The translations under genes were made by a program, and so were the position numbers. From NCBI GenBank assembly GCA_947586205.1, contig CANPXO010000001.1, forward strand, positions 4,164-68,163: a DNA stretch of 64,000 nt, written 5' to 3'. The notes under the pieces were generated by a model. It searched no databases. It was not told where the DNA came from and was given only the letters and a program-made list of their open reading frames with translations. The stretch is from an uncultured Bacilli bacterium (GTDB taxonomy: Bacteria; Bacillota_I; Bacilli_A; RF39; UBA660). The stretch's first letter is position 1. Every line of letters starts with the position of its first letter. This document shows, in pieces, positions 2,381-17,745 of this stretch.

Positions 2381-2471
2381 AACTCTCACCTCTTTCTTAA
2401 ACTCTATTATAAAAGAAATCATTTGATTTCTCAAGAAGAAACAAAAAGTTTTTAAAATCACTTTTTCCTAC

Positions 2472-2500
2472 TTGAATTTTTATTTTATTTTTGATATACT
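2472..2500 (+). promoter_or_regulatory. Antisense-RNA promoter of unit A (TTGAAT-17-TATACT with TGn extended -10)
   Basis: -35 TTGAAT at 2472-2477, a 17-nt spacer, and ttGaTATACT at 2495-2500. It converges on the 3' end of small ORF A. The same promoter recurs at 2841-2869 and 3217-3245, and on the minus strand at 14733-14761 and 15107-15135. Confidence 0.55.
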
Positions 2501-2506
2501 GTATAC

Positions 2507-2620
2507 AGATGAAGGAAACTTCATATAATAAAAAAAGGAAGCATTCAGTTTTCCATTACTGAATGCCTACCTATAAAAATGGGTTGACATTTACGTTATG
2601 TAAGTGTCTATTTCTTTATT
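2507..2620 (+). ncRNA. Putative cis-antisense RNA A (type I antitoxin-like), overlapping the 3' UTR and terminator of small ORF A
   Basis: The TSS is inferred ~7 nt after the -10. The RNA ends at hairpin GACAUUUAC..GUAAGUGUC (2585-2607, one G-U wobble) followed by a U-rich run. It is fully complementary to the last codons, stop codon and terminator of the convergent small ORF. Confidence 0.4.
2525..2566 (-). terminator. Intrinsic terminator of small-ORF A mRNA
   Basis: On the minus strand, hairpin GCAUUCAGU..ACUGAAUGC is followed by CUUCCUUUUUUUAUU. Confidence 0.5.
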
Positions 2621-2703
2621 ATGGAAAGAATTAATATAATTTCCAATAAAATAGTGATGACATACCTTAAGACTTGTAAATGATAACTCTGCTTTTTTGT
2701 CAT
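2608..2703 (-). CDS. Small hydrophobic peptide A (31 aa, MTKKQSYHLQVLRYVITILLEIILILSIIKK); putative type I toxin-like membrane peptide
   Basis: Not in the ORF track because it is too short. SD AGAAGAAAGGGG lies upstream. The 5' leader (about 2745-2756) contains CTTTCTTCTCTC, complementary to the SD. It has a polar N-terminus, a single TM helix and a C-terminal KK, like BsrG/TxpA/Fst. Confidence 0.45.
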   Translation of the reverse strand: MTKKQSYHLQVLRYVITILLEIILILSIIKK

Positions 2704-2788
2704 ATCAATCACACCCCTTTCTTCTTTAGATTTTGTTATAGAGAGAAGAAAGTGGTAGACACCCAGTAACTAAATACTTCCTATGAAC

Positions 2789-2817
2789 ATAATAGCATAC
2801 TTTTATAATATTAGCAA
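2789..2817 (-). promoter_or_regulatory. Promoter of small ORF A (TTGCTA-17-TATTAT)
   Basis: Read on the minus strand: TTGCTA atattataaaagtatgc TATTAT. It recurs at 3165-3193 (-), 14413-14441 (+) and 14785-14813 (+) with a TAATAT -10. Confidence 0.5.
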
Positions 2818-2875
2818 GCAAAAATATTATTTTTTGCCACTTGAATTTTTATTTTATTTTTGGTATACTGTATAC

Positions 2876-2992
2876 AGATGAAGGAAACTTCATATAATAA
2901 AAAAGGAAGCATTTCAGTTTGCTATGCTGAATGCCTACCTATGAAAATTGGATAGACATTTACAATTTACTTGTAAGTGTCATTTCTTTATC
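2876..2992 (+). ncRNA. Putative cis-antisense RNA B
   Basis: Promoter TTGAAT (2841-2846), 17-nt spacer, tgGTATACT (2864-2869). Terminator hairpin GACATTTAC..GTAAGTGTC at 2955-2981 followed by a T-rich run. Confidence 0.4.
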
Positions 2993-3081
2993 ATGGAAAG
3001 AATAAATATTACTTGCCATAATATTGTGATAATGTAATCAAATATTTGAAGTACAAATTTCTTGTTTTGACTCATATTCAT
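2980..3081 (-). CDS. Small hydrophobic peptide B (33 aa, MNMSQNKKFVLQIFDYIITILWQVIFILSMIKK); putative type I toxin-like
   Basis: SD AAGGAGAAAGGGG lies upstream and the leader carries CTTTCTCCTCTC (anti-SD). It is a paralog of peptides A, C' and D'. Confidence 0.45.
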   Translation of the reverse strand: MNMSQNKKFVLQIFDYIITILWQVIFILSMIKK

Positions 3082-3251
3082 CACACCCCTTTCTCCTTAA
3101 AAAAATTATTTTATAGAGAGGAGAAAGTGGTAGACACTCAGCAACTAAAATGCTTCCTACAAACATATTAGCATACTTTTATAATATTAGCAAGCAAAAA
3201 TATTATTTTTTGCCACTTGCATTTTTATTTTATTTTTGATATACTGTATAC

Positions 3252-3366
3252 AGATGAAGGAAACTTCATAAAATAAAAAAAAGGAAGTATTCAGTTTTCC
3301 ATTACTGAATGCCTACTTTAGAAAGTTGAAGACATTTACAATTGCTTGTAAGTGTCATTTTTTTGT
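3252..3366 (+). ncRNA. Orphan antisense-RNA unit C (promoter and terminator present, cognate small ORF absent)
   Basis: Promoter TTGCAT (3217-3222), 17-nt spacer, TATACT (3240-3245). Terminator hairpin 3331-3356 followed by T7. The expected small-ORF position is taken by the 3' end of the thioredoxin-like gene, so the unit is degenerate or truncated. Confidence 0.3.
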
Positions 3367-3399
3367 CATAAAGAAAAAGAAAAGCAATATTTACTTTTC

Positions 3400-4116
3400 T
3401 TAACATGCATCCGTACAAACATCTAAACTTATTGAATTTAATAATTCTTTTAAAGTGTTTTTAAGTTTTTCTCGATCACTTTCTGACAATGTTTCATACC
3501 CAGTTTCTTGAGCATCTACTGTTCCCTCATGTATTGCTTTAATCTTCCCACCTTGAACTGCCACGATTGTGGGAGCATAGAGTCTTTTTTCATTGGTCTC
3601 AATACTTTTTCCTTTGGAATCATATAATGTATAATCACTTAAATAATCTTTTAATAAATCTAATATTTTATAATAGTCAGCACTCCCCTCTTTTTGAGTC
3701 ATCACTTTATTATTCTCATCTAAGGCAAGTGTAGAACGAATGTCTTTAATATTTAAATAATAAATCTCCCCAATACTTTCTTCTTTAGCAGCTTCCTCTA
3801 AAATAGGTAGTATCGTTCGGCACCAAGGACAAGTTGGAAAACCAAAATAAATAATTCCTGAACCACTTTCCAAAATTTTTACAATTTCTTCTTCTGTTTT
3901 ATATACAAAAGGATTGTCATCATCAAGTTCTACAATAGGATATTCCTTTTTATTATTTTCATTTACTTGACCGTTCAAAGAACCATATTCTTCCTTTATT
4001 TTTACTGCATCTTTCTCTTCCGTTTCTCTATTTTGAAAAGCAAAGAAGGCGCATACACAAGCAATCACTACAATCACACCTAGTAAACCTACTAACACCC
4101 AGTTTTCTTTCTTCAC
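3400..4116 (-). CDS. Membrane-anchored thioredoxin-fold protein (CPWC active-site-like motif)
   Basis: N-terminal TM helix and an FPTCPWC motif. It starts at GTG (the track shows M). The thioredoxin-like fold is inferred from the motif and length. Confidence 0.55.
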   Translation of the reverse strand: MKKENWVLVGLLGVIVVIACVCAFFAFQNRETEEKDAVKIKEEYGSLNGQVNENNKKEYPIVELDDDNPFVYKTEEEIVKILESGSGIIYFGFPTCPWCRTILPILEEAAKEESIGEIYYLNIKDIRSTLALDENNKVMTQKEGSADYYKILDLLKDYLSDYTLYDSKGKSIETNEKRLYAPTIVAVQGGKIKAIHEGTVDAQETGYETLSESDREKLKNTLKELLNSISLDVCTDAC

Positions 4117-11923: not shown

Positions 11924-14278
11924 CTAATACTCAATAGGAATTGTCGGATCTAATTTTGAGAATATCTTACTCATATAATGGTTTGCTTTTTTATAAATAT
12001 AAAGAGAATCTATGGATAGAACAAAGCCAATTAATGCACTTGCTGGTGTGATTGGAATTAAATTAAAGAAATCATATTGGAATAACACACAGTAGATGAA
12101 GCCTAAAAGTAATCCCATAAATAACACGATTCGAAGTAAAGTAAATGGTGTACAAATTTTATAAAGATAAATAAATCCTGTAATCGCGGTTAAGAACACA
12201 GCAATCGAACTTTGCATTTCATAAGATAAATGGAACGTATAAGTAAATAATGTGACGAGTAGAACATTAAAGACAATCGTTAAAGCAACAGGAAGGCTTC
12301 GACTGACAACTTTTAAAAGAAAGTTTCCTTTCACTAAATCATGGTTCGGTTCTAAGGCTAAAATGAAAGATGGAGTTCCAATCGTAAATGTGGTAATTAA
12401 AGTAAGTTGTATAGGAATAAAGAAATATTTTGCAGATAGTACAACACTTAAAAGAATGAGTAAAACGGTATAAATCGTTTTTACTAAAAGTAAAGATGCA
12501 CTTCTTTCAATATTGTTAATGGTTCTTCTTCCCTCGGCAACAATTTTTGGTAAAGAATCAAAGTTATCATCTAATAATATGAGTTGAGAAACATTTCTCG
12601 CGGCATCACTTCCACTAGCCACTGAGATTGCACAGTCAGATTGTTTTAAGGCAAGGACATCATTTACTCCGTCTCCAGTCATAGCAACCGTTCTTCCACT
12701 CTTTTGCAATGTTTCAATAATTATCTTTTTTTGTTCGGGTTTGACACGACCAAAAACTTGATACTCTAAAACAGTATTCTTTAATTCTTCCTCACTTAAA
12801 TCTCCTACATCAATACCTTTCATGTTTTTGAGTCCCACACGTTCAGCAATATTCAAAACCGTTTTTACTTGGTCTCCGGAAATAATCTTCACAGCAACCC
12901 CTTGAGACTTAAAATAATCTAAAGTATTTTTTGCTTCTTCACGAATGACATCTTCTATCAGAATGTATCCTAAAATTTCAATATCACTTGGTGTTTTACT
13001 AATTTGCTTTTGACTAGACCCCACAAGTAAAACACGGTAATTTTCTTGTTTTTTTATAATATCACTTGGAATTAATTTTTTATCGGATATCAAAAACTCC
13101 AGTGCACCAACATAAATGGTTCCATGACTTTTAAACTCCATTCCACTAAACTTTCGCTCGGAAGAAAAAGGAATTTCTTCGACAACCGTATCTATCACTT
13201 CTTGTTGAAATTCTTGTTGTAAAGCCTCCATCGTCGCATTGGCATCTTTCACATTTTGACAAAATAAGGAAACGATTTCCCTTAAATGTTCTTTTGTTTC
13301 TTTTTTATAAGGAACGGTATCTACAACTTTCATAGTTCCTTTGGTAAGTGTTCCTGTTTTATCTAAACAAATGACATCGACTCTTGCTAACGTTTCAATA
13401 CAATAAAGTTGTTGTACCAAAACTTTGTATTTTGATAAACGAATGACACTGACTGCCATCACTGAACTTGTAAGTAAAACAAGACCTTCAGGTATCATTC
13501 CAATTAGAGCTGCAACCGTCGTAAAAATCGCATCTGTGACGATTCCATTACTCGCATGAAGCTGACTAAAGAACATAATAATTCCAATGGGAATAATACA
13601 AACAGATAACACTTTCAAAAGTTTTTCAAAAGAATCCATAATAATCGAATTGATTTTTTTATTGTATTTCGCCTCTCTAGATATTTTCGATACGTAGTTT
13701 TCATTTCCAATATGCACAATTTTAGCAAGACATGTCCCACTTACTAAGAAAGAACCGGAAAGTAAGAAATCTCCTTTTTTCTTTACAATAGAATCTGGTT
13801 CTCCAGTAATTAAAGATTCGTTGACTTCTACTTCTCCTTCTAAAACTATGGAATCACAAACCACTTGATGCCCTCTTTGAAGTTCAATTACATCATCTAA
13901 AACTAATTCTTCTAATTTTTTAGATACCTTCTTACCATCACGAAGAACAATAATATCTGATTCAGAAACCATGGAAAGTTTATCAATAATTTTTTTAGAA
14001 ATAATTTCTTCAATAATACTAATAATCGAATTGATAATGATAACACCCATAAATAAACAATTCTTTAACCCTTGAAATAACTGATGACTGAATAAGCCAG
14101 AAAGAAAAACAGCAAGCCCTAAAGCTAAATTTAAAAAGTTAAAATAAGTAAAAAAGTTACTTGCAATAATTTGTTTAATAGATTTTGTCTTAGGTTGGTC
14201 ATCAAAGTTGACAAGTCCTTTTTGAATTCTTTCTTCTACTTCACTCTGACTCAAACCTTTTTCTTCGTATTTTTCCAT
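11924..14278 (-). CDS. Cation-transporting P-type ATPase (type II-like)
   Basis: DKTGTLT phosphorylation motif, PEGL, GDGVND hinge motif and multiple TM segments. Confidence 0.8.
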   Translation of the reverse strand: MEKYEEKGLSQSEVEERIQKGLVNFDDQPKTKSIKQIIASNFFTYFNFLNLALGLAVFLSGLFSHQLFQGLKNCLFMGVIIINSIISIIEEIISKKIIDKLSMVSESDIIVLRDGKKVSKKLEELVLDDVIELQRGHQVVCDSIVLEGEVEVNESLITGEPDSIVKKKGDFLLSGSFLVSGTCLAKIVHIGNENYVSKISREAKYNKKINSIIMDSFEKLLKVLSVCIIPIGIIMFFSQLHASNGIVTDAIFTTVAALIGMIPEGLVLLTSSVMAVSVIRLSKYKVLVQQLYCIETLARVDVICLDKTGTLTKGTMKVVDTVPYKKETKEHLREIVSLFCQNVKDANATMEALQQEFQQEVIDTVVEEIPFSSERKFSGMEFKSHGTIYVGALEFLISDKKLIPSDIIKKQENYRVLLVGSSQKQISKTPSDIEILGYILIEDVIREEAKNTLDYFKSQGVAVKIISGDQVKTVLNIAERVGLKNMKGIDVGDLSEEELKNTVLEYQVFGRVKPEQKKIIIETLQKSGRTVAMTGDGVNDVLALKQSDCAISVASGSDAARNVSQLILLDDNFDSLPKIVAEGRRTINNIERSASLLLVKTIYTVLLILLSVVLSAKYFFIPIQLTLITTFTIGTPSFILALEPNHDLVKGNFLLKVVSRSLPVALTIVFNVLLVTLFTYTFHLSYEMQSSIAVFLTAITGFIYLYKICTPFTLLRIVLFMGLLLGFIYCVLFQYDFFNLIPITPASALIGFVLSIDSLYIYKKANHYMSKIFSKLDPTIPIEY

Positions 14279-14412
14279 AATTCCACGTCCTCATTAAAAA
14301 AATTATAACAAAAAAAAGACAAAAAAAGAAGTTTTATTCTTCAAGTGTTAAAGTGGTTGTCACCTAGCCTAACAATCAATTTTATTTTCAGTAGATAATT
14401 ATCATTTTTTGC

Positions 14413-14441
14413 TTGCTAATATTATAAAAGTGTGCTAATAT
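14413..14441 (+). promoter_or_regulatory. Promoter of small ORF C' (TTGCTA-17-TAATAT, TGn extended -10)
   Basis: TTGCTA 14413-14418, 17-nt spacer, tgcTAATAT 14436-14441. Confidence 0.5.
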
Positions 14442-14524
14442 GTTTGTGGGAAGCATTTTAGTTGCTGAGTGTCTACCACTTTCTCCTCTCTATAAAATCA
14501 ATTTTTTAAGGAGAAAGGGGTGTG

Positions 14525-14626
14525 ATGTATATGACCAAAAGGCAAATTTATCATTTAAAAGTCTTGAAGTGTATAATCACAATTCTGTGGCAAGTAATAT
14601 TTATTCTTGCCATAATAAAAAAATGA
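14525..14626 (+). CDS. Small hydrophobic peptide C' (33 aa, MYMTKRQIYHLKVLKCIITILWQVIFILAIIKK); putative type I toxin-like
   Basis: SD AAGGAGAAAGGGG at 14507-14519. The leader anti-SD CCACTTTCTCCTCTC at 14476-14490 gives an SD-sequestering stem-loop with a 14-nt loop. The sequence is a single TM helix plus a KK tail. Confidence 0.45.
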   Translation: MYMTKRQIYHLKVLKCIITILWQVIFILAIIKK

Positions 14627-14726
14627 CACTTACGTAATTGTAAATGTCTATACTCTTTATAGGTAGGCATTCAGCATAGCTAAACTGAAATGCTTCCTTT
14701 TTTATTTTATGAAGTTTCCTTCATCT
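14615..14726 (-). ncRNA. Putative cis-antisense RNA C'
   Basis: Minus-strand promoter TTGAAT (RC at 14756-14761), 17-nt spacer, TATACT (RC at 14733-14738). Terminator hairpin (RC at 14625-14648) followed by a U7 run. It overlaps the stop codon and terminator of ORF C'. Confidence 0.4.
14667..14710 (+). terminator. Intrinsic terminator of small-ORF C' mRNA
   Basis: Hairpin GCATTCAGCATAGCTAAACTGAAATGC followed by TTCCTTTTTTATTTT. Confidence 0.5.
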
Positions 14727-14895
14727 GTATACAGTATATCAAAAATAAAATAAAAATTCAAGTGGCAAAAAATAATATTTATGCTTGCTAATATTATAAA
14801 TGTATGTTAATATGTTTGTAGGAAGCATTTTAGTTGCTGAGTGTCTACCACTTTCTCCTCTCTATAACCAAAATTTTTAAGGAGAAAGGGGCGTG

Positions 14896-14997
14896 ATGTA
14901 TATGAGTCAAAACAGGAAATTTATACTTCAAATATTTGATTACATTATCACTATTTTATGGCAAGTAATATTTATTCTTTCCATAATGAAAAAATGA
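14896..14997 (+). CDS. Small hydrophobic peptide D' (33 aa, MYMSQNRKFILQIFDYIITILWQVIFILSIMKK); putative type I toxin-like
   Basis: Promoter TTGCTA (14785-14790), 17-nt spacer, TAATAT (14808-14813). Leader anti-SD and SD as in C'. Confidence 0.45.
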   Translation: MYMSQNRKFILQIFDYIITILWQVIFILSIMKK

Positions 14998-15100
14998 CAC
15001 TTACAAGTAAATTGTAAATGTCTCCAATCTTTTTCGGTAGGCATTCAGCATAGCTAAACTGAAATGCTTCCTTTTTTATTTTATGAAGTTTCCTTCATCT
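14986..15100 (-). ncRNA. Putative cis-antisense RNA D'
   Basis: Minus-strand promoter TTGATT (RC at 15130-15135), 17-nt spacer, TATACT (RC at 15107-15112). Terminator hairpin RC at 14996-15023 followed by a U-run. Confidence 0.4.
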
Positions 15101-15153
15101 GTATACAGTATAACAAAAATAAGATAAAAAATCAAGTAGGAAAATATAATATT

Positions 15154-17745
15154 TTATACTCCTAATGCTACTCCTTTTTTCTTTAGTATTATTTTTCTAA
15201 TAAAATCAACAGGAATCACGGTAAATGATAAAATTAACACAAAGAATAATTCAAAAGGTGTGAGTCCAAAGGTTCTAAATACGGTTCCTCCTTTATAAAT
15301 GAGAATCATCTGTACAGAAGCTATAAACAAAATTGTAAGGACAAAAACAATATTTTCACTTAAATGGGCAAATAAATTAAGACGATGGGTTCTTGCATTA
15401 AAAGCATTCCCGATTCCAATAAAAATAAACAAAGCAAAATAAGCCGTCATTAAATATTTAAAATCTTCGCCTGTTCTTACTAAAGTTCGAATCCACGGGT
15501 GTTTCAAGAAAAACAAACATAATAAAGCGGAATAAAGACCTGTGAAAATAATCTCCGAATACATATAACGATTCATAATCGGTTCATTTTTATCTTTAGG
15601 AGGCTCCATCATTGTATCTTTTAAAGCAGGTTCATAAGAAAAAGCAAGTCCTGCAAAGGTATCCATAATCATATTAATCCATAACATTTGAATAATGGTA
15701 ATCGGGGTATTCACTCCTACAAAAGGGCCAATAATGGATAAGAATAAAGCTACAAAGTTACAAGTACACTGATAAATAATAAACTTTCGAATGCTTTTGA
15801 AAATCGTTCTTCCATAAAGAATCGCCTGACTAATCGATAAAATATTATCATCTAATATGACAATGTCACTCGCTTCTTTCGCGACTTCGGTTCCACTTCC
15901 CATGGCAAAACCAACATTGGCTTTTTTAAGAGCTGGAGCATCATTCACACCATCCCCTGTCATTCCGACAATAAGCTCTTTTCTCTCAGCAATTTTAACA
16001 AGTTTACTTTTGTCTTGAGGAAGAGCCCTAGCAATGACTTTAATTCTTGGTAAAAGAGTTTCGAGTTCATACTCGGAATAATGATTTAATTCTTCACTCG
16101 TTAAAACTAAATCCGAAGGGCTTTTGATAATTCCGACTTCTTTTGCAATCGACTCTGCCGTTTCTTTCGCATCTCCTGTAATCATCACGACTTGAATACC
16201 CGCATTTTGAATCAAAGAAACGCCGTCCAAAGACTCTTTCCGTAAATCATCTTTAATGGCAACGATTCCTAGAAATGTTAAGTATTCTAATGTTTCACTT
16301 CTTCCTACTGCTAAAGTAATGACACGACTTCCTTTTTTGGTGAGTCTTTCAATTTCCCTTTCGATTTCTTCATGACTTGTAAATGGTTTTTCTTCCCCAC
16401 TTTCTAACATCATCCGATTACATTTTGGAATAATCTTTTCACTAGCTCCTTTAAAATATGTTTTTTCTACGCCATTTTCTTTCACTGTAACAGAGGAATA
16501 CTTGTATTTACTATCAAAAGGAGTGGAATGAATGATTTCTTTCTCGATATTTTTTGGTTCAAAAAACTGAAGCAAAGCCCGGTCCGTCGAATTCCCACCT
16601 ATCACTTTTCCCTCGCTGTAAAAACTTTGATTGTTCCAAACCATAGCTTTTTCAATACTGAAACCAAGCTCCCTCTTCTTTTGTAAATCACTTTCAGTAT
16701 GAAAATGAAATAATTCCCCACTTACTATATCTACAACTTCTAATTTTCCTTTTGTTAAAGTTCCTGTTTTATCTGTGAATAAAATATTTAGGGAACCCGC
16801 GGTTTCAATTCCCACAAGCTTTCTTACTAAAACATTATTTTTAAGCATTCTTTTCATGTTACTTGATAAGACTAAAGTAATCATCATCGGAAGTCCTTCT
16901 GGAACTGCAACAACAATAATGGTAACAGATAAAGTTAAAGCATAAATAAGATAATCGGCCATGACCCTAAAATTCATTAAAGTATCACAAATACGACTCC
17001 ATTCAAAATTATTATTGATGACAATCACCGAGAAAAGATAAGAAATGGTTACCAAAAATGCTCCAACATAACCAATGCGACTAATCGTTTTAGCAAACCC
17101 ACGAAGTCGAAGTTTTAAAGGACTCACTGGTTCCTTTTCTTGAACTTCTTTCGCTAAAGCTCCATACACCGTTTGGTCCCCTACACTTTGAACTTCTAAA
17201 GTTCCCGTTCCTTCATAAATGACTGAACCTCGAAGAAGCTTATTGTTGGAAGTTCCAGCAATTTTTTTATTTTCTTTTGTTTCTCCATTGAGTCTTGATT
17301 CATCGACACTTAAACTTCCTTCCACCAAAATTCCATCTGCTGGGACGGCATCTCCACTTGATAGAAGAACGATATCTCCAACCACCACTTCATCCATTTT
17401 AACTTCGATGATTTTCCCATCTCTTTTAACTTTAACCAAAATGCTTTCAGATTCTTCTTGTAATTTCTTAAATGCTTGTTCACTTCCATATTCACTGATG
17501 GATGAGATAAAAGATGCAAGAAAAATGGCGATTAAGATGCCTAAAGTTTCAAAATAATCAAAATCTCGAAACAAAAAAACAACTTTAATAGCTAAAGCAA
17601 TGAGTAAGATTTTGATAATCGGATCTCCTAAAGATTCTAATAACAGTTTCCAAAAACTATTTCTTTTTATTTCGGTTAAAGCATTGGTTCCGTACTTCTT
17701 TCTTTGTACTTCTACTTCTTTATTCGTGAGTCCATTGAATTTCAT
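15154..17745 (-). CDS. Calcium-translocating P-type ATPase (PMCA/SERCA-like, P-type IIA/IIB)
   Basis: DKTGTLT, VPEGLP, TGDGVNDAPAL and 10 predicted TM segments, in an 863-aa protein. Confidence 0.8.
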   Translation of the reverse strand: MKFNGLTNKEVEVQRKKYGTNALTEIKRNSFWKLLLESLGDPIIKILLIALAIKVVFLFRDFDYFETLGILIAIFLASFISSISEYGSEQAFKKLQEESESILVKVKRDGKIIEVKMDEVVVGDIVLLSSGDAVPADGILVEGSLSVDESRLNGETKENKKIAGTSNNKLLRGSVIYEGTGTLEVQSVGDQTVYGALAKEVQEKEPVSPLKLRLRGFAKTISRIGYVGAFLVTISYLFSVIVINNNFEWSRICDTLMNFRVMADYLIYALTLSVTIIVVAVPEGLPMMITLVLSSNMKRMLKNNVLVRKLVGIETAGSLNILFTDKTGTLTKGKLEVVDIVSGELFHFHTESDLQKKRELGFSIEKAMVWNNQSFYSEGKVIGGNSTDRALLQFFEPKNIEKEIIHSTPFDSKYKYSSVTVKENGVEKTYFKGASEKIIPKCNRMMLESGEEKPFTSHEEIEREIERLTKKGSRVITLAVGRSETLEYLTFLGIVAIKDDLRKESLDGVSLIQNAGIQVVMITGDAKETAESIAKEVGIIKSPSDLVLTSEELNHYSEYELETLLPRIKVIARALPQDKSKLVKIAERKELIVGMTGDGVNDAPALKKANVGFAMGSGTEVAKEASDIVILDDNILSISQAILYGRTIFKSIRKFIIYQCTCNFVALFLSIIGPFVGVNTPITIIQMLWINMIMDTFAGLAFSYEPALKDTMMEPPKDKNEPIMNRYMYSEIIFTGLYSALLCLFFLKHPWIRTLVRTGEDFKYLMTAYFALFIFIGIGNAFNARTHRLNLFAHLSENIVFVLTILFIASVQMILIYKGGTVFRTFGLTPFELFFVLILSFTVIPVDFIRKIILKKKGVALGV

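Follow-up and report, generated by a model that had tools for sequence, protein, structure and literature searches.

Type I antitoxins of Bacillus subtilis are antisense RNAs that bind the toxin mRNA's 3' end over 100-140 bp and trigger its cleavage by RNase III (PMC6562991). In the bsrG mRNA, nucleotides 1-35 pair with nucleotides 232-262 to form the helix P1, and the Shine-Dalgarno sequence (SD) lies in the stem-loop (SL) SL1; the antitoxin SR4 pairs with the 3' part of bsrG including the 3' arm of P1, frees nucleotides 1-33, and on binding lengthens the helix that contains the SD, which grows from 4 bp to 8 bp (PMC3834814). RNase III cleaves the bsrG/SR4 duplex (PMC3834814, PMC6562991). Tandem repeats, hydrophobicity and the Gram-positive 3'-overlap organisation are recognised hallmarks of type I systems (PMC8594479), and tandem repetition is a recognised search criterion for such loci (PMC8594479, PMC3919570). 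Here we analyse a tandem array of short repeats next to dnaB in a stretch of 64,000 nucleotides (hereafter the window) from an uncultured Bacilli bacterium (assembly GCA_947586205.1, contig CANPXO010000001.1, positions 4,164 to 68,163 of the forward strand), which an earlier note had read as BsrG/TxpA-like type I modules. Its units are likely to be type I toxin-antitoxin modules of the Gram-positive 3'-overlap design and, judging from their sequences, a probable new family: they would work like bsrG/SR4 but are not demonstrable members of that or any other named family.

The array consists of three direct-repeat copies within positions 2461-3370, spaced by 369 and 376 bp. Aligned in the minus-strand sense, unit 1 covers 2461-2840, unit 2 covers 2830-3216 and unit 3 covers 3206-3370. 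The first two are full units of ~370 bp each, and unit 3 is an antisense gene only, with about ten C-terminal codons of the peptide gene left. The direct repeats and the alignment thus bear out the layout given in the earlier note, with two complete units and a degenerate last one that kept its antisense gene and lost its peptide open reading frame (ORF). Two conserved stretches of 23 and 27 nt occur five and four times in the window, against none in shuffles, and a consensus scan found four terminator-like sites (0.4 expected) and 17 promoter-like sites (7.8 expected). The toxin genes of this array are laid out as follows.

2461-3370, minus strand: array 1, with unit 3, unit 2 (type B) and unit 1 (type A) in the toxin sense (direct repeats, alignment, nhmmer)
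3165-3193, minus strand: unit 2 toxin promoter, TTGCTA-17-TGcTAATAT, predicted transcription start near 3158
2899-3158, minus strand: unit 2 predicted toxin mRNA, ~260 nt (folding, pair counts)
3158-3129, minus strand: 5' arm of the long helix in the unit 2 mRNA, followed by the anti-SD CTTTCTCC at 3127-3120 and the SD GGAGAAAGGGG at 3096-3086
2939-2904, minus strand: 3' arm of the unit 2 mRNA, identical to the terminator hairpin, with the U-tract at 2904-2899
2980-3075, minus strand: peptide ORF T2 (type B), MSQNKKFVLQIFDYIITILWQVIFILSMIKK, 31 aa and stop
2789-2817, minus strand: unit 1 toxin promoter, TTGCTA-17-TGcTATTAT (consensus scan)
2530-2782, minus strand: unit 1 predicted toxin mRNA, ~253 nt, terminator at 2568-2539
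2608-2703, minus strand: peptide ORF T1 (type A), MTKKQSYHLQVLRYVITILLEIILILSIIKK, 31 aa and stop

All full units carry the toxin promoter motif TTGCTA-17-TGcTA(A/T)TAT with its extended -10 element, as had been read in units 1 and 2. It is followed by a leader of ~82 nt, a strong SD (AAGGAGAAAGGGG in unit 2, AAGAAGAAAGGGG in unit 1, G(G/A)AGAAAGGGG in general form), the peptide ORF, and a 3' untranslated region (UTR) of ~85 nt before a hairpin and T-run, which gives a predicted toxin mRNA of ~255 nt per unit. The SD and the intrinsic terminator claimed earlier are found in both units; the terminator of unit 2 is bulged and was missed by a simple scan, yet it folds. The start codon common to all copies is an ATG located 10 nt after the GGGG of the SD. 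A start at an upstream ATG, giving 33/34 aa, was considered and rejected, the other copies being without that ATG. The earlier description of 31-33 codons encoding one transmembrane (TM) helix and a C-terminal KK is therefore right in its architecture and wrong in the 33-aa length, both peptides having 31 aa. The expectation that standard annotation would miss these genes also held: the 31-aa ORFs are absent from the gene calls on same-species contigs, and an exact look-up of the peptides, in five start-codon variants, found none in a collection of 15 billion proteins. The source annotation of two same-species contigs has a 46-aa gene call corresponding to window positions 3038-3178 (minus strand; L002 6254-6394, L007 3913-4053); this call is almost certainly spurious, being the toxin leader in another frame and overlapping the start of the real ORF.

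Comparisons were made over 13 full units, from the window, from two loci of a sister species (L009 and L010) and from a third locus (L026). Their peptides are of four types (A to D), all of 31-38 aa, basic at both termini and with one predicted TM helix between them; on the Kyte-Doolittle scale their most hydrophobic 19-aa window scores 2.0-2.6, and the net charge is +2 to +6. Types B and D have a common motif, FVxxIFxY (pairwise E = 8e-5). The type A and B ORFs, eight distinct sequences in nine units, are all 31 codons long and diverge by up to 29% in nucleotides. The ratio of nonsynonymous to synonymous differences (pN/pS, Nei-Gojobori) is 0.1-0.7 in most of their pairs, computed from few, closely related copies and with too few changes in type D pairs to inform; several pairs have synonymous changes in excess at P = 0.009-0.04, and amino-acid replacements are mostly conservative (I/V/L/M/F, K/R).

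These data bear on a reading in which the repeat is non-coding, either a convergent small RNA pair or a structured intergenic repeat, and the ORF is incidental. The RNA-control segments are better conserved than the ORF (mean identity across units of 89% for the leader and 86% for the 3' UTR, against 81% for the ORF), and gene finders do not call the ORF. However, the frame, the 31 codons, the SD and the start spacing are kept in 9/9 type A and B units, substitutions are biased towards synonymous and conservative ones, and the SD is very strong and specifically masked. Moreover, the unrelated ORFs of types C and D occupy the same position and again encode a basic N-terminus, a hydrophobic helix and a basic C-terminus. 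A non-coding repeat is thus very improbable.

The toxin mRNA is predicted to have a strong and conserved structure. In unit 2 its minimum free energy is -87.8 kcal/mol (z = -8.86), and no shuffle folded as well. In all 13 units the predicted fold joins the initial 30 nt (17-30 of them paired) to the ~36 nt that immediately precede the U-tract, and the duplex between 5' arm and 3' end amounts to -33 to -45 kcal/mol, shuffled arms giving -12 +/- 3. Across the units 96.5% of cells of this long helix are paired, compared with 38-47% in slid controls, four pairs have changed on both sides, and none of 500 shuffles reached the observed covariation score. Matching one-nucleotide deletions are present in both arms in unit 1, and type D keeps the helix with another sequence (GTT/AAC to GAA/TTC, GCA/TGC to GGT/ACC). 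The 3' arm is the sequence of the terminator hairpin itself; terminator and 5'-3' clamp are therefore mutually exclusive, the clamp being far more stable.

A second helix is predicted to mask the SD, as the earlier note had proposed for the leader: fold prediction in all 13 units places 7-10 SD nucleotides in an 8-10-bp helix with an upstream anti-SD. Compensatory change is seen here too (GGAG/CTCC to GAAG/CTTC), a single change repairs a mismatch in L010_A1, the deletions in type C match each other (TTT/AAA to TT/AA), and the pair formed in type D, GAGGAGGTGA/TCAYCTAYC, is unrelated. The helices of types C and D were judged by folding each sequence, since matching indels shift the register and make column-wise counts unreliable. 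Blocking the 3' 92 nt leaves the predicted SD helix in place, with three pairs added in unit 2.

The antisense genes lie on the plus strand in array 1, each with a promoter TTGAAT-17-TGnTATACT located ~25 bp beyond the toxin terminator.

2841-2869, plus strand: unit 2 antisense promoter, TTGAAT-17-TGgTATACT (consensus scan)
2876-2989, plus strand: unit 2 predicted antisense RNA, ~114 nt
2878-2893, plus strand: SL1 of the unit 2 antisense RNA, with a GAAA tetraloop; SL2 is the complement of the toxin terminator, and the SL3 terminator lies at 2955-2981
2982-2991, plus strand: unit 2 antisense U-tract, over the stop, Lys and Lys codons
2472-2500, plus strand: unit 1 antisense promoter, TTGAAT-17-TGaTATACT (consensus scan)
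2507-2617, plus strand: unit 1 predicted antisense RNA, ~111 nt, terminator at 2586-2608
3217-3364, plus strand: unit 3 orphan antisense gene, with promoter TTGCAT-17-TGaTATACT at 3217-3245, RNA at 3252-3364 and terminator at 3331-3356

Both convergent promoters are where the earlier note had placed them, and the RNA of ~110 nt is predicted to end, as claimed, at its own hairpin over the stop codon of the peptide ORF. In all 13 copies it is predicted to form three hairpins, namely a 5' GNRA hairpin (SL1), SL2 and, after an AU-rich linker, the SL3 terminator (fold z = -3.5). The promoter and SL1 are near-identical in the 13 copies even where ORF and SL3 differ completely, the promoters differing by a few bases in the -35 hexamer and spacer. 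SL1 (ATGAAG-GAAA-CTTCAT) is not complementary to the toxin mRNA, and SL2 is similar in sequence to the toxin mRNA's own 5' end. SL1 and SL3 fold more stably as antisense-strand RNA (-6.1 and -11.3 kcal/mol) than as toxin-strand RNA (-3.7 and -7.9 kcal/mol), because G-U pairs in the former would be A-C mismatches in the latter.

The overlap between mRNA and antisense RNA is perfect over 84-89 nt at the mRNA 3' end and spans the last three codons and the stop. The SL3 stem ends within the stop codon, and the U-tract ATTTCTTT is the complement of the Ile-Lys-Lys codons, so that the C-terminal KK and the antisense terminator are the same nucleotides. This holds at 2982-2991, at 2609-2618 and at the equivalent positions of other units, over Ile-Lys-Lys or, in type D, Gln-Lys; the U-tract being templated by the last codons, basic C-terminus and terminator constrain each other. 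By analogy, the same coupling may exist between the KKK end of BsrG and its antitoxin terminator. In type D a completely different SL3 terminator sequence occupies this position and covers that type's own stop codon. A par-like interaction of the antisense RNA with the translation-initiation region was rejected: the duplex with the start region (-12.6 to -23.1 kcal/mol) is no better than in shuffles (about -20 +/- 4), i.e., complementarity is at chance level.

These features are shared with bsrG/SR4 and bsrE/SR5: a single-TM peptide of 30-38 aa with a basic C-terminus (BsrG ends in KKK), a convergent antisense RNA over the 3' end of the mRNA and the end of the ORF, and toxin ORFs exchanged at otherwise conserved loci (PMC3834814, PMC6562991). 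The bsrG mRNA has in addition the long 5'-3' helix P1 with the SD in the first stem-loop, and its antitoxin targets the 3' arm of that helix, so that binding frees the 5' arm. The match to bsrG/SR4 is thus closer than the earlier note could see, because the toxin mRNA is predicted to contain a P1-like 5'-3' helix as well. Some differences are nevertheless evident. In the BsrE-G-H group the antisense RNAs have 163-180 nt and four hairpins, compared with ~110 nt and three hairpins here, the overlap is about 100-140 bp instead of 84-89 bp, and the modules are single prophage copies, whereas the present ones form tandem arrays in ordinary chromosomal intergenic sites. Moreover, the terminator of bsrG follows P1, while here it constitutes the 3' arm and the two structures exclude each other.

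Other type I systems are more distant. TxpA/RatA of the B. subtilis skin element is larger (59 aa and 222 nt), and neither it nor SprG/SprF of Staphylococcus aureus shows any sequence similarity or family model match with the units. Like the present mRNA, those of hok/sok and AapA/IsoA are locked by 5'-3' pairing, and their folding keeps translation off (PMC8594479, PMC6733600), but their antisense RNAs act at the 5' or initiation region and activation requires 3' trimming, whereas here the antisense RNA is confined to the 3' end, over the 3' arm of the lock, and peptides and RNAs are unrelated. Fst/RNAII (par of pAD1) is likewise Gram-positive and convergently transcribed, its peptide has ~30 aa, and its SD is masked by 5' structures; however, the par RNAs interact through 5' direct repeats that are complementary to the start region and through a bidirectional terminator common to both, while the antisense RNA here has its own terminator and only chance complementarity to the start region. 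Finally, ldr/rdl, ibs/sib and zor/orz of E. coli are also type I modules in long tandem direct repeats, but their antisense RNAs lie at the 5' side or across the ORF, and they belong to another phylum with no homology to the present units.

Homology searches returned nothing that would place the peptides or RNAs in a known family. Pfam, NCBIfam, PHROGs and PADLOC gave no match for any peptide type (Pfam and NCBIfam at E <= 10), and Rfam 15 gave no match over the whole window at the gathering score, with only noise (mir-633, PGK) at E <= 10. The peptide profile aligned to BsrG (sequence from PMC4342826) with an hhalign probability of 1.1%. No match to BsrE or BsrH was found, homology to these having been tested only indirectly through the Pfam and NCBIfam libraries; TxpA/RatA gave no Pfam, NCBIfam or Rfam match, and no Fst model matched the peptides. 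The label "BsrG/TxpA-like" is therefore apt for the design of the units and does not extend to their sequence. In the protein family libraries searched, no non-toxin small-protein family matched the peptides either. A profile hidden Markov model of the four window peptides retrieved a single, spurious match among 1.84 billion representatives, a repetitive protein of 1873 aa. In viral contigs and JGI metagenomes, DNA-pattern scans found nothing, and peptide-pattern scans gave 568 and 600 matches, of which none was confirmed by tblastn. Plasmids and phages searched by blastn in distant mode, and plasmids searched by tblastn, likewise yielded no match.

A second array, lying outside the coordinates of the earlier note and in opposite orientation to array 1, was identified between two P-type ATPase genes; nhmmer profiles detected no copies in the window beyond these two arrays.

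14384-15150, plus strand: array 2, with unit 4 (type A) followed by unit 5 (type B)
14448-14703, plus strand: unit 4 predicted toxin mRNA, promoter at 14413-14441, ORF at 14531-14626 encoding MTKRQIYHLKVLKCIITILWQVIFILAIIKK
14617-14761, minus strand: unit 4 antisense gene, promoter at 14761-14733, RNA from 14726 to 14617
14820-15077, plus strand: unit 5 predicted toxin mRNA, promoter at 14785-14813, ORF at 14902-14997 encoding MSQNRKFILQIFDYIITILWQVIFILSIMKK
14989-15135, minus strand: unit 5 antisense gene, promoter at 15135-15107, RNA from 15100 to 14989
11924-14278 and 15154-17745, minus strand: the flanking P-type ATPase genes

An exact 27-mer scan of 185,579 species representatives, which diverged relatives would escape, matched one genome, "uncultured Bacilli bacterium Lapin-026__bin92", a metagenome-assembled genome (MAG) ~91% identical to the window. 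It contains two arrays, one at the syntenic site between the thioredoxin gene and dnaB (L009) and one downstream of an RNase J gene (L010), and these add type C (MKEILKEVFKFINILLCEIILLSILNKIDTYKKL) and type D (MDKRRTFVIKIFQYLVALATLFTICFLSFLYVMLQKGT). The window's own species also has a third array downstream of RNase J (L026), made up of an orphan antisense gene together with a unit of type D, one of type C with a frameshift, and a new variant of type B, MSQKRRFIIQVFDYIVNILWEIITILSIIKK. Each genome carries at least seven full copies at three loci. Family DNA was found only in these two closely related uncultured rabbit-gut Bacilli species. In relatives whose flanking proteins are 61-90% identical, the sites between thioredoxin gene and dnaB and at RNase J are empty, with gaps of 62-72 bp (L013, L015-18, L029); the RNase J site is empty even in the relative at 90% identity (L029).

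Identity between units is mosaic: one pair is 95% identical in the leader and 76% in the ORF, another 96% in the 3' UTR and 73% in the ORF. This points to recombination swapping peptide cassettes among units, and a like exchange of ORFs has been reported for bsrG/SR4 loci carrying BsrE/H (PMC6562991). The near-identical RNA-control segments would recombine with one another, so that arrays expand and are rearranged, peptide cassettes are swapped and orphan antitoxin genes are left at the ends of arrays. Type C may represent a toxin gene in decay whose antisense gene is retained: in L026 (6326-6382) the loss of one base relative to L010 shortens its ORF to 18 aa, and in L010 the ORF reads past the usual stop into the antisense terminator.

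The same anatomy would fit the gene of a small, non-toxic membrane protein under cis-antisense control with an ordinary cellular role, for instance in modulating a membrane protein. Many small hydrophobic proteins of bacteria are not toxic, the peptides are unlike any known toxin, and the arrays sit at chromosomal sites with no phage or plasmid genes nearby. Yet the copy number at three unrelated loci, together with the empty sites, fits a selfish mobile module better, and orphan antisense genes and decayed ORFs (type C, L026) are as expected of toxin loss under antitoxin cover. The double lock of the mRNA (5'-3' helix and SD masking), combined with a dedicated antisense RNA from a strong promoter, also speaks against a harmless product, such locked control being typical where the product must stay off (PMC6562991, PMC3834814). 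We therefore regard a non-toxic membrane protein as unlikely.

Several points nevertheless weigh against the assignment as type I toxin-antitoxin modules. In the searches made, no known family of type I toxins or antitoxins resembled the units in sequence. The evidence for coding is moderate, with a pN/pS near 0.7-1.0 and few countable changes in some pairs, and the transcript ends of all units are predicted from consensus motifs only. The family occurs in two close species only, so that all copies are recent paralogues, and gene conversion between them could account for part of the covariation and conservation. The SD is predicted to be masked both in the free and in the antisense-bound mRNA, which makes it hard to see how the peptide comes to be translated. 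Finally, the units are known here from the MAG sequence of an uncultured organism, and their transcription, toxicity and rescue are predicted.

If the units are type I modules, their operation can be modelled on bsrG/SR4. The toxin mRNA is predicted to be closed and translationally silent. Pairing of the antisense RNA would start either in the single-stranded linker or in the loop of SL3, and the RNA would then invade the clamp, giving the 84-89-bp duplex and displacing the 5' arm of the mRNA. The duplex would be a likely substrate of RNase III, the freed 5' end of the mRNA would be open to a 5' exonuclease, and the SD would stay sequestered, or become more so. Upon loss of the short antisense RNA, the stable closed mRNA would persist, some peptide would be made, and the membrane would be damaged. 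SL1, at the 5' end of the antisense RNA, probably stabilises the antitoxin.

Taken jointly, these elements could describe an unrecognised type I family with the following properties, a combination that we put forward as a possibility and hold with some doubt. The terminator would be re-used as the 3' arm of a 30-bp 5'-3' clamp, and the antitoxin would mimic the 5' end of the mRNA and open the clamp by strand displacement, exposing the duplex and a free 5' end to RNases. The shared control RNA would permit swaps of toxin cassettes (types A-D) and cross-protection by orphan or neighbouring antitoxins, and the C-terminal Lys-Lys would be a side effect, fixed by the U-tract of the antitoxin terminator.

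Type I toxin-antitoxin systems are badly under-annotated, because their peptides are tiny and diverge fast, and the present locus is a clean example, with at least seven full copies per genome in uncultured gut Bacilli and none of the peptides in a collection of 15 billion proteins. The family provides a template for finding further systems of this kind by their RNA architecture and not by similar peptides, its paralogues supply natural compensatory mutations for both mRNA helices, and it is a compact model of mutual constraint among antisense RNA, terminator and coding sequence. While it opens no new class of mechanism, it suggests that the bsrG/SR4 design is in use outside the prophage families of Bacillus; this shared design may have arisen by convergence, or may be homologous beyond recognition.

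Array 1 is flanked by a PedC-like thioredoxin gene on one side and by the promoter of dnaB (DnaB_2) on the other.

3400-4116, minus strand: membrane-anchored PedC-like thioredoxin-fold protein with a CPWC motif, adjoining array 1
2406-2434, minus strand: likely dnaB promoter, TTGAGA-17-TATAAT, just downstream of the last unit

The location next to dnaB given in the earlier note is thus right, although this gene is the Firmicute DnaB_2 (PF07261) replication-initiation protein and not the DnaB helicase; a DnaI-like loader gene follows it. The direct contact of the upstream PedC-like gene (PF20207) with array 1 would suit a role of the peptides as bacteriocin or signalling-peptide precursors serviced by a thiol-disulfide oxidoreductase. 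This gene, however, adjoins dnaB also in relatives that have no array and is therefore not part of the module, and a functional link to it was rejected. The peptides, moreover, resemble membrane helices and have no leader, double-glycine motif or conserved cysteines, and the other two arrays have unrelated neighbours (P-type ATPases, RNase J). Such precursors are accordingly highly implausible. At the other border of the array, an alignment at 65% relates the first 65 nt of the repeat family D1 (2403-2470) to the other units' toxin-promoter region; on account of this alignment, the boundary of array 1 may fall inside an older, decayed unit.

The third array lies directly 3' of the RNase J gene in both species (L026 5650-6920 in the window's species, L010 1130-2790 in the sister species). 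In B. subtilis, RNase J1 takes part with other enzymes in degrading type I toxin-antitoxin RNAs, which makes the adjacency curious, though it is probably a coincidence. Several metagenome assemblies of the window's species break exactly inside the arrays (L003/L006, L004/L008, L022-L025), and hence MAGs will frequently lack such repeats or carry them split, with copy numbers counted too low. Lastly, in a more distant relative, whose thioredoxin-like protein is 69% identical, a stretch at L013 140-260 shows a weak match to the antisense model (nhmmer E = 9e-4), followed by a hairpin and T-run. It has no ORF on the opposite strand, adjoins an apparent tRNA-like sequence (judged by eye) and the contig start, and may be a decayed relative.

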